Part shown: piece after piece, positions 45,001 to 48,000 of the stretch | How the letters are laid out: each line of letters opens with the position of its first letter | Position numbering within the stretch: position 1 is the first letter of the stretch | Program-made: the position numbers | Sequence record: KP682380.1 | DNA length: 64,000 nucleotides | DNA from: Escherichia phage PA27 | Reading direction: 5' to 3' (one strand)

Positions 45001-48000
45001 TGAAAAAGGCACTCAGGCACAAACACAGATCGGCGTGAAGGCCATCATTGACCAGATCCGCGATGAGGCTGCAAAGTCGCCGGTTGTGTCCGAGCTGCGT
45101 AAAGAAATAAAAAACGCGCAGGGGCAGGCTGTAAAGGATGCTGCAATTAAGACAACCGAAGTTGTAGGGACTCTCAGGGAAGAAACGACAAGAACGATTG
45201 GTGGTATTGAAACCCGCATTAGCACACTGGATTCGTCAACCAGTGAATCGCTTAATGAGGTCGACAAGCGCATCACTAAATTGGATAAAGAAGGCGGTGA
45301 AGCTTTTCTTGCAATGTGGTCAAAAAAAGCGGGAGTTGATGGTATCACTGCGGGGATCGGGATTGTCGCCGGAAAAGACAGTGAAGGCAGGCCTGTAAGT
45401 CAGGTTGCAATTTCTGCGTCGCAGTTGTTTGTCTTTGACCCGAATAATCCGGATAACACAGCCTATCCGTTTGCGGTATCAGGTGGCAAGGTAGTGATCC
45501 CGAAAGCGATGATTTATGACGCGGTGATTGAAACACTGGTGTCGCGGAAGGTTGTGGCGGATGAGGTAAAAGCCGGGGTAAGTATCACTTCGCCAGTTAT
45601 CCGGAGTGCCGTTATTCAGAACGGAAACTTTCAGGTTGATTCTCAGGGTAACCTGAATATTGGAGGCCTTTTCAGTGTTACGTCACAAGGGCAACTGACA
45701 ATTCGTTACTCTAATCAGAATGTAGGACTGGTGATCCGCAATGATAAAATTGAGGTTTATGACCAGAATGGACGACTGGCTGTTCGCATAGGCAGATTAC
45801 GCTGATCAGGAGGTGAGTATTGGAATACGGTTTTGCCATTTATAACAGAAATAACGTTAATGTTACGGGCGTGCTGACTCCAGTATTTTTCCTGGACAGA
45901 TTTACAGCGGAGTCTGGCTCAAAGACGTACACTAATAAACCCGACGGGAAATCATTGCAGGCTGTATGTTGTTTATTTCCCTGGAATAATGTATTTGCGG
46001 ATCGGAAAGTACCGAAGATAACCATTAATGACAATACGGTGACGTGGTCGAATCTTGAGCAGGGTATGGGATCTTATATTTATACATTCTGGGGATAAGT
46101 GTTATGTACGGTTTGAGCATTATGAAGCCGGATGGCAGCGTATGGATAAGTCCAGGTTTTACGCCGCAGTGTCTGATCAACAAAGGCACCATACCGGCGA
46201 CTGAAAAGTCTTTTTTTAAAACATCAATCCCGTCAGGCAAAAGTTGTTTTTTCTTTATCAGAACAGAGAAGAAGGCCGATGTCATGTACACGCATGAACA
46301 GATTGATGGATATCATGCACTAAGGCTTCATGTAATTGTCAGGGGAACGAACCCTGGTGTTACGACGGTTTATGCTTTCGCGAATATGGTTACTCCACCT
46401 TCTGAGTATGGTATCGCCATGTATAACCCGGACGGTGAGATGATTTATCATGGCGAAATGATGCTGCTTGACGCGAAGTTAATACCTGTTGATATCAAAT
46501 TTGAAAAGGACCTTGGATATCCATGCGCAATCATGCCTGCACTGGTCGGGTATTATAACTGGAAAAGAACTCCTTATGATCGACCGATTTATACCACATC
46601 CACTGGTGCTACAGGAAATAAAATATATTCCTGTGAGCATTATTCCGGTGGTGCAACATGGGATATTCGAAAGCCGTATATAGATAAGGTCCTGGTTATT
46701 AATACATCAGTATATGATTAGTTGAAGCGAGTCTTTAATATTCATTTAAAATGTCTAAAAAGATGTATTATTAAAAAGTTTAGCGTGTTATCTGAATACA
46801 GGATATCTTAAATGAAGAGTATAGCAACACTGGTTGTGTGTGCAATCTCCGGGATTGCCTGTGTAAATTTATCTGCACATGCAGCAGAAGGAGAGCATAC
46901 AATTTCTCTGGGGTATGCGCACTTTCAGTTTCCGGGACTGAAGGATTTTGTAAAGGATGCGACTGCTCATAACAGGGAGACTTTCAGTCATTTCGTCAAC
47001 AGAAACTACTTTTCTTCATTGGGCGAATATACAGATGGTCGGGTCAGTGGATATGAAGGCAAGGATAAAAATCCACAGGGCATTAATATCAGGTATCGCT
47101 ACGAGATAACGGATGATTTTGGCGTTATCACCTCTTTTACATGGACGCGTTCTCTCACTAACTCACAGACATTTATTGATGTGCAGTCAGCCGATCATAC
47201 CAGGAAGATTAAGAATCCGGCAGCTTCTGCCAGAACGGATATCAGGGCGAATTACTGGAGTCTGTTAGCGGGGCCTTCATGGCGGGTTAATCAGTACATG
47301 AGTTTATATGCGATGGCAGGGATGGGCGTTGCTAAAGTTAGCGCTGACCTGAAAATTAAGGACAATATTAACAGTAGTGGCGGATTTTCTGAAAGCAACA
47401 GCACGAAAAAAACCTCCCTTGCGTGGGCTGCAGGTGCACAGTTTAACCTGAATGAGAGTGTTACACTGGATGTGGCTTACGAAGGTTCCGGCTCTGGCGA
47501 CTGGCGCACGAGTGGCGTTACTGCTGGCATTGGCCTGAAATTCTGACCTGTATCCGGTAACCGTTTACTACCCGCTGTGATGGCGGGTTTTTTATTGCCC
47601 GTACAGGGCAAAAACCGTAAATTATGCGTGGGTGCCTTTCGGCTGATGGCTGGAGGGTGAACCTGAAGGCCTGATGTGGAAAGGCCCCGAGTCAACTTAA
47701 CGTTAACCCGAGGCCCTAACACTTCGTACCTTAAGCAAGTAGAAGGTTAGCGCCTCTCTGTAAAAGGAGTCAAGCGCTATGTCGCAAAAATCGCTTATCA
47801 CCGTCACAATTTGCATGACGGTTATCTTCACCATCTGGATGTTGCACGGTTCACTGTGTGAGTTCCGGCTGAATTTGTGGGGAGCGGAGTTTGCGGCGTT
47901 CTTACAGTGTAAGCAGTAGGAAAACCGCGACGGGGACGAGAGTCCCCGTCAACTGGTTGCTGAGGTTCAGCCGATATGGCACCCGTTTCAGGTGAGAGAA

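Follow-up and report, generated by a model that had tools for sequence, protein, structure and literature searches.

What is encoded by the short open reading frame (ORF) that follows lom in Escherichia phage PA27, and is it a lone gene or one part of a toxin-antitoxin locus? We addressed this question in a 64,000-nucleotide stretch of the phage (sequence record KP682380.1; hereafter the window), which is a 933W/Sp5-type Stx2 prophage. A first-pass annotation of the same DNA had proposed that a 46-codon ORF after lom encodes a toxin of the Hok/Gef family and forms a second, divergent hok-like locus in the prophage. The evidence set out below leads us to read positions 47595-47984, placed between lom and the L0129 gene, as one copy of a mobile type I toxin-antitoxin cassette of the hok/sok type that the prophage carries as a moron, a reading to which we give a probability of roughly 85%.

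A Hok-family toxin gene in a cassette of about 390 bp

The ORF is present much as first described. It is listed on the plus strand at 47779..47919, with its ATG at 47779 and a TAG stop codon (47917-47919); the proposed ribosome-binding site is found 9 nt upstream of the start, and a GAGA hairpin with a 9-bp stem lies past the stop (Table 1). The encoded peptide of 46 amino acids (aa), MSQKSLITVTICMTVIFTIWMLHGSLCEFRLNLWGAEFAAFLQCKQ, has a single transmembrane helix. It matches the Pfam profile HOK_GEF (PF01848) with 33.2 bits (E = 4e-8) against a gathering score of 22 bits, residues 8-44 aligning with profile positions 6-42 of 42, and it matches PHROG 251 ('MokW-like host killing') with an E-value of 2.8e-24. 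Residues M1, C12, T14, L26, C27, E28 and E37 account for all seven family-conserved positions, which are kept in >80% of 1264 Hok peptides according to a survey by Escalera-Maurer et al. (bioRxiv 10.1101/2025.08.07.668861). These residues are invariant or nearly so across the eight family peptides that we compared. The peptide also has a second cysteine, C44, and both cysteines are hard-coded. Its length and its hydrophobic N-terminal helix agree with the family pattern of ~45-55 aa.

Conservation was assessed in three sets: 61 distinct sequences of the cassette, taken from E. coli, Salmonella and viral contigs, for the ORF and leader-frame counts, 63 distinct variants for the promoter patterns, and 16 aligned copies for RNA pairing and for the ratio of nonsynonymous to synonymous substitution rates (dN/dS). 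Of the 61 sequences, 59 keep the full 46-aa ORF, and one of the two exceptions, of 43 aa, runs into the end of its contig; the median pairwise dN/dS is 0.26. Because of the profile matches, this integrity and the low dN/dS, the ORF is far beyond what chance would give. RefSeq places WP_000078907.1, 'Hok/Gef family protein', at these exact coordinates, which together with the above-threshold Pfam match supports the toxin reading of the first-pass annotation. We conclude that ORF 47779..47919 is a Hok-family membrane toxin gene.

The gene is already known, in that it is annotated and catalogued and its peptide is among the homologs listed for toxicity testing. The earlier description of the ORF as unlisted holds for old records, among them the original 933W entry, where it has no annotation; it does not hold for RefSeq or for a Pharokka-annotated phage record, which names it 'MokW-like host killing'. 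A 441-bp region containing the gene is 100% identical to phage 933W (AF125520, 45431-45871), to VT2-Sakai/Sp5 and to many further Stx phages, and is present in 1675 of 5426 complete E. coli genomes. The exact peptide appears in the survey as 72_1589, listed together with 72_1621 in 60%-identity cluster 72; the cluster-abundance column gives it the flag 'HAC', and it corresponds to the arabinose-inducible construct LRP157 in the toxicity-assay table (bioRxiv 10.1101/2025.08.07.668861). The survey reports 42 of 45 tested Hok homologs as toxic and names three as non-toxic, 72_1589 not being one of them. The peptide is presumably toxic, then, by exclusion from those three and not from an assay panel of its own. 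Coding sequences alone were the survey's subject, and Mok, Sok and the mRNA ends are explicitly left unannotated in it. Fozo et al. (2010) counted 12-14 Hok genes in O157:H7 genomes. Our literature searches found no publication on the lom-proximal locus, and a ciprofloxacin transcriptome paper on enterohaemorrhagic E. coli mentions hokE as the only hok.

The gene belongs to a unit of about 390 bp (47595..47984). Copies that are 78-85% identical are found in P2-like prophages next to ogr, following J in a lambdoid prophage, close to the ure genes in a genomic island, on a plasmid, and as three tandem copies by serS. In every one of these contexts, homology among the divergent copies is limited to ~47610-47984 and stops directly past the fbi element described below. 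Because homology ends at the same limits in unrelated surroundings, we regard the unit as a cassette. A scan of species-representative genomes for this Hok family returned 5 loci only.

Some individual copies deserve mention. In NZ_CM165887 (strain N51), three tandem cassettes adjoin serS at 541-1876, each annotated as a Hok/Gef family protein. A copy in NZ_CP074750, compared with window positions 47630-47984, is a mosaic: its 5' and 3' untranslated regions (UTRs) are 97% and 95% identical, respectively, whereas its coding sequence (CDS) is 67% identical in nucleotides and 54% in amino acids, so that recombination seems to have exchanged the toxin CDS for one of the 'MPQKTI' type within the same frame of UTRs. 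Three contigs, labelled Xanthomonas pisi, Planococcaceae metagenome-assembled genome and Vagococcus sp. (L014, L015 and L017), also encode this Hok family, with tblastn identities of 100% for L014 and 76% for L015 and L017. Their flanks read like the enterobacterial cassette, and they are probably assembly contamination.

Predicted promoters, mRNA fold and antisense RNA

The presumed hok promoter keeps the pattern TTGnnn / 17 nt / TAnAnT in 61 of the 63 variants, and homology with the divergent copies starts there. Downstream of it, Rfam RF01794 (sok/hok leader) matches 47630-47792 (+) with 35.6 bits (E = 9e-6). The alignment begins at 47630, where we place the predicted 5' end of the mRNA, and the tac element is invariant in all 16 copies.

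The RNA from 47630 to 47990 folds at -155 kcal/mol (z = -6.2), with its 5' end closed on its 3' end by pairing of tac with fbi. The share of paired cells across the 16 copies is 95.5% and 81.5% for the two tac-fbi helices, compared with 37-51% in slid controls; tac-fbi closure, a mark of hok/sok loci, is thus present at this locus. The first-pass annotation had likened the hairpin at 47929..47950 to the 3' fold-back of hok mRNAs. This part of it did not hold, as the fold-back is formed by 47967-47984, some 30 nt further downstream, which pairs with 47630-47646. In plasmid R1, an equivalent 3' stem-loop shields the 3'-processed, translatable mRNA from exonucleases, and by analogy the hairpin at 47929-47950 is probably the 3' end of a processed, stable hok mRNA. 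The hairpin was also considered as a plus-strand terminator and rejected, since no T-run follows it. On the minus strand, an A-rich run before the stem-loop makes the region 47920-47951 score as an intrinsic terminator, with the stem followed by CGGTTTTCCT.

When the RNA is truncated 3' of the stem-loop, the predicted fold changes: tac moves to 47676-88 and a hairpin at 47710-47756 presents an open 9-nt loop. The consensus fold of the 16 copies has this same arrangement, with RNAalifold pairing columns 1-14 with 47-59 (tac with the ucb-like box) and columns 84-94 with 120-130 (the target hairpin). The truncation-induced change reproduces the conformational switch of plasmid R1. A 10-bp helix between the hok start and codons 38-41 forms in the full-length, truncated and consensus folds alike, and TTTGCGGCGTTCTT is invariant in the 16 copies though synonymous choices are available. 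The loop of the target hairpin, CCUUAAGCA, is complementary to the 5' tail of the predicted Sok RNA, and its CUUA fits the U-turn motif YUNR.

An antisense regulator had been left unidentified in the first-pass annotation. A Sok-like gene can now be placed as a prediction on the minus strand, from ~47737 to 47678, by homology and conservation, with its predicted promoter at 47773-47744. Homology links this region to the sok part of RF01794, and the predicted RNA would start with a single-stranded 5' tail, followed by a hairpin of 16 bp (47716 to 47683) and then UUUCC, folding at -32.5 kcal/mol (z = -5.45). The antisense hairpin, at -20.6 to -27.0 kcal/mol, exceeds its sense counterpart, at -11.9 to -19.0 kcal/mol, in stability in every one of the 16 copies, because its G-U pairs are A-C mismatches on the sense strand. 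A functional antisense transcript would be expected to leave such an asymmetry. All 63 variants keep the -10 element TAACCT of the predicted promoter unchanged, and 59 of them have a TTG-type -35 element 17-18 nt away. The hokW/sokW locus of the same prophage carries TAACCT at the same place (GAGGC-TAACCT). By our reconstruction, which compares primer YO-421 with the wild-type window sequence, it falls in the stretch that was replaced in the promoter-less sokW mutant, and that construct lost the antitoxin effect (PMC8621323).

Table 1. Coordinates of the lom-proximal cassette, its upstream neighbour and the first hok locus of the prophage
Feature	Position	Strand	Basis
lom-like gene, upstream of the hok ORF	46812..47546		Pfam Ail_Lom, 113 bits
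lom terminator, followed by a T-run, upstream of the hok ORF	47570-47588		
Predicted hok promoter: -35 TTGCCC (47595-47600), 17-nt spacer, -10 TAAATT (47618-47623)	47595-47623	+	Sequence, family conservation
Predicted hok mRNA 5' end and tac: GGGUGCC (47630-36), UCGGCUGA (47639-46)	47630..47646	+	Rfam start, folds
Eight-codon remnant of the sole recurrent mok-like frame (+2): ATG 47674, TAA 47698	47674..47700	+	
ucb-like box GUGGAAAGGCCCC, alternative partner of tac	47676..47688	+	Consensus and truncated folds
Predicted Sok-like RNA, ~60 nt, both ends inferred	~47737 to 47678	-	Homology, conservation
sokT-like target hairpin GAGGC...GCCUC, 9-nt loop CCUUAAGCA (47729-47737)	47710..47756	+	Truncated and consensus folds
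Predicted sok promoter: -35 TTGACT (47773-47768), 18-nt spacer, -10 TAACCT (47749-47744)	47744..47773	-	Conservation
hok Shine-Dalgarno (SD) sequence AAGGAG, 9 nt before the ATG	47764-47769	+	Sequence; GGAG nearly invariant among the 16 aligned copies
hok-family toxin CDS, ATG start, 46 aa	47779..47919	+	ORF listing, profile matches, RefSeq
UUUGCGGCGU within codons 38-41, pairing partner of AUGUCGCAAA (47779-47788) at the hok start	47890..47899	+	
Conserved 3' stem-loop GACGGGGAC-GAGA-GTCCCCGTC, perfect 9-bp stem	47929..47950	+	Sequence; 95% of cells paired, 4/9 pairs with compensatory changes
fbi fold-back: UCAGCCGA (47967-74), GGCACCC (47978-84)	47967..47984	+	Minimum-energy fold
hokW/sokW of Sp5, the prophage's first hok locus	60579-60903	-	Takada et al. 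2021 primer, peptide

Proposed control of hok without a mok leader frame

The one unusual feature of the lom-proximal cassette is that mok is absent. In plasmid R1, Sok acts by blocking an overlapping mok frame, and translation of mok up to the hok SD is mandatory for Hok synthesis. A mok leader ORF coupled to hok was looked for as a further mark of hok/sok loci: no ATG, GTG or TTG frame crosses the hok start in any of the three frames scanned in the window copy. The scan was extended to 16 copies and then to the 61 distinct variants; 39 of the 61 likewise have no such frame, and the frames of the other 22 are inconsistent with one another. The sole recurrent candidate opens at a conserved ATG (47674) and, in a minority of variants (about a third), extends to +80 beyond the hok ATG. 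The GAGG at 47710-13, homologous to the SD of R1 mok, has no start codon after it.

By homology with plasmid R1 hok/sok and hokW/sokW, the cassette would work as follows. A constitutive hok promoter would give an mRNA of ~355 nt that is kept compact and untranslated by clamping of tac to fbi. Slow 3' trimming to the stem-loop at 47929-47950 would free tac to pair with the ucb-like box at 47676-47688 and so expose the target hairpin, to which a short-lived antisense RNA of ~60 nt would bind through its single-stranded 5' tail; the duplex would then be destroyed, probably by RNase III. Once the antisense RNA is exhausted, Hok would be made and the inner membrane depolarised. Because no mok leader ORF reaches the hok start, the antisense RNA would have to act through mRNA decay or refolding instead of through a blocked leader ORF, and this is the least certain step. 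The likely role of the locus, again by analogy with hokW, is prophage stabilisation or help with lysis on induction; exclusion of other phages could be another.

Somewhat short of an even chance is a tentative generalisation, namely that the widespread 46-aa cluster 72 Hok of Stx phages, P2-like prophages and islands represents a naturally mok-less variant of hok/sok with antisense control free of a leader ORF. In such a variant the antisense RNA may bind 27 nt or more upstream of the hok SD. Control could then proceed by decay triggered by RNase III, by refolding of the leader, which would govern the conserved pairing of the AUG with codons 38-41, or by way of a standby site like that of tisB/istR-1. 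As the mok frame is not conserved in a Hok subfamily that is itself well conserved and spreading, the locus provides a modest mechanistic lead on whether leader-ORF coupling is general.

Several observations weigh against the cassette reading. Given the R1 requirement for mok, hok could be translationally silent in the window copy. The Rfam score of 35.6 bits lies under the RF01794 gathering score of 59 bits. A generic sigma-70 scan called neither the hok nor the sok promoter; the -10 element TAACCT matches the consensus at 3 of 6 positions and was missed for that reason. With the scan empty, both promoter assignments rest on family conservation and on homology with sokW. The positions in the helices are mostly invariant, so that covariation supports a few pairs only. 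The terminator scan found no plus-strand intrinsic terminator past either the 3' stem-loop or fbi; no such signal thus fixes where the full-length hok mRNA ends, and read-through into L0129 is possible. Lastly, our literature searches found no transcript, RNA-end or translation data on this locus.

A rival view is that the locus is a translationally dead relic, a real hok/sok homolog in which loss of mok means that Hok is never made, with the RNAs perhaps still transcribed to no effect; the like has been proposed for several chromosomal hok loci. The missing crossing frame, the stop after eight codons in the recurrent mok-like frame and the need for mok translation in R1 all speak for it, as does the sequestration of the hok AUG in the conserved 10-bp helix in every predicted fold. 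Moreover, chromosomal hokA, hokB and hokC are reported, in the survey, to be unable to mediate post-segregational killing (bioRxiv 10.1101/2025.08.07.668861). A silent toxin gene would however be expected to decay, whereas this ORF keeps its 46 aa whether the mok-like frame is open or not, and its dN/dS indicates purifying selection. Conservation likewise extends to the two promoters, to tac and fbi and to the hairpin of the antisense RNA, and the cassette keeps spreading to new contexts, even as a tandem triplicate. This integrity and spread weaken the relic view, and we consider it unlikely, preferring the reading that the subfamily works without mok.

Two further explanations concern the gene itself. 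The ORF is short and unannotated in the original 933W record, and the hairpin with its T-run does resemble a terminator on the minus strand, so one might take the whole as a chance intergenic ORF beside the terminator of lom or of a neighbour. The profile matches and the conservation already refute this: the Pfam and PHROG matches are significant and the peptide is maintained under purifying selection in dozens of variants, lom has a terminator of its own, the hairpin lacks a T-run on the plus strand, and the 390-bp unit moves as a whole. It is also highly improbable that the phage acquired an ortholog of chromosomal hokA/sokA, in which case knowledge of hokA would apply. The top NCBIfam match of the peptide is indeed the HokA equivalog NF007290 (38.4 bits, E = 9e-10), and the two have in common an AAFL.C tail and two hard-coded cysteines, but the score is far under the equivalog cut-off of 89 bits, at which HokA orthology was rejected. 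The peptide is only 46 aa long and the survey puts it in cluster 72 and HokA in cluster 93 (bioRxiv 10.1101/2025.08.07.668861). Judged by its sequence, the peptide is a Hok but not HokA, because of that distance from the cut-off. We retain the mobile hok/sok-type cassette as the best account of 47595-47984.

Two hok loci in one prophage and further features of the window

The proposal that this is a second hok locus in the same prophage was correct, the other being hokW/sokW of Sakai prophage 5 (Sp5). There, a sok/hok leader at 60729-60903 (-) is matched by Rfam at full score, with 113.5 bits, and the ORF encodes the 51-aa HokW (MKQQKAM...), which is HokD-type and for which mok is an in-frame N-terminal extension of 70 aa. 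The possibility that the lom-proximal locus is itself the published hokW/sokW was considered and rejected, as both the MKQQKAM peptide and the primers for hokW fall at 60579-60903 (-). Published work describes hokW/sokW as a toxin with an antisense antitoxin that depends partly on RNase III and Hfq; HokW is made after mitomycin C, deletion of the locus halves the phage yield, and the lom-proximal locus is not described (PMC8621323).

The hokW/sokW locus is the nearest experimentally characterised neighbour of the lom-proximal one. The two share a prophage, the layout of the cassette and the sok -10 element TAACCT next to GAGGC. Their leaders are divergent (113.5 versus 35.6 bits in Rfam), and HokW has 51 aa and an in-frame mok whereas the lom-proximal peptide has 46 aa and none. 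In a crude test of duplex energies between the two loci, non-cognate Sok pairing reached less than half of the cognate value, a calculation that suggests no cross-talk between the two Sok RNAs. At both loci RF01794, although named 'sok antitoxin', matches the hok-sense leader from the mRNA 5' end to about the hok ATG, so that the strand it gives (47630-47792 +, 60729-60903 -) is the hok strand and not that of the small RNA.

Compared with hok/sok (parB) of plasmid R1, the paradigm for toxin-antitoxin systems of type I, the lom-proximal locus has a Hok toxin, the tac/fbi clamp, the tac-ucb stem, the target hairpin and the protective 3' stem-loop in common. A further resemblance to R1 is the predicted short antisense RNA: its promoter would overlap the region of the hok SD, and its terminator would be complementary to a hairpin of the leader. 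Unlike R1, it has no mok ORF and no terminator after fbi, it is a prophage moron and not part of a plasmid, and its toxin has 46 aa where that of R1 has 52. Among named Hok proteins, HokA of the chromosomal hokA/sokA locus of E. coli is the most similar by profile, with both cysteines directly encoded in each; the lom-proximal peptide nevertheless falls below the equivalog cut-off, belongs to another 60%-identity cluster and is shorter.

Old Stx-phage records (933W, VT2-Sakai) leave the gene unannotated, and Sp5/933W has two hok loci. This matters for studies of lysis timing, prophage stability and Shiga-toxin release in Sp5/933W: the published hokW deletion removed one locus only, and its two-fold effect on phage yield could have been buffered by the lom-proximal locus.

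Downstream of the cassette, the annotated start of L0129 (ATG 47976) falls inside the fbi segment GATATGGCACCC, an element that is kept also where L0129 does not follow. PHROG 610 aligns to the L0129 product only from residue 9, and for this reason the real start is probably the ATG at ~48000. Elsewhere in the window, Rfam finds the ALIL pseudoknot twice, at 19550-19666 (-) and 26521-26637 (-), with 121.5 bits each; these are presumably two copies of one insertion sequence in the prophage. The other Rfam matches in the window are STnc100, AsxR, isrK, C4 and three tRNA.

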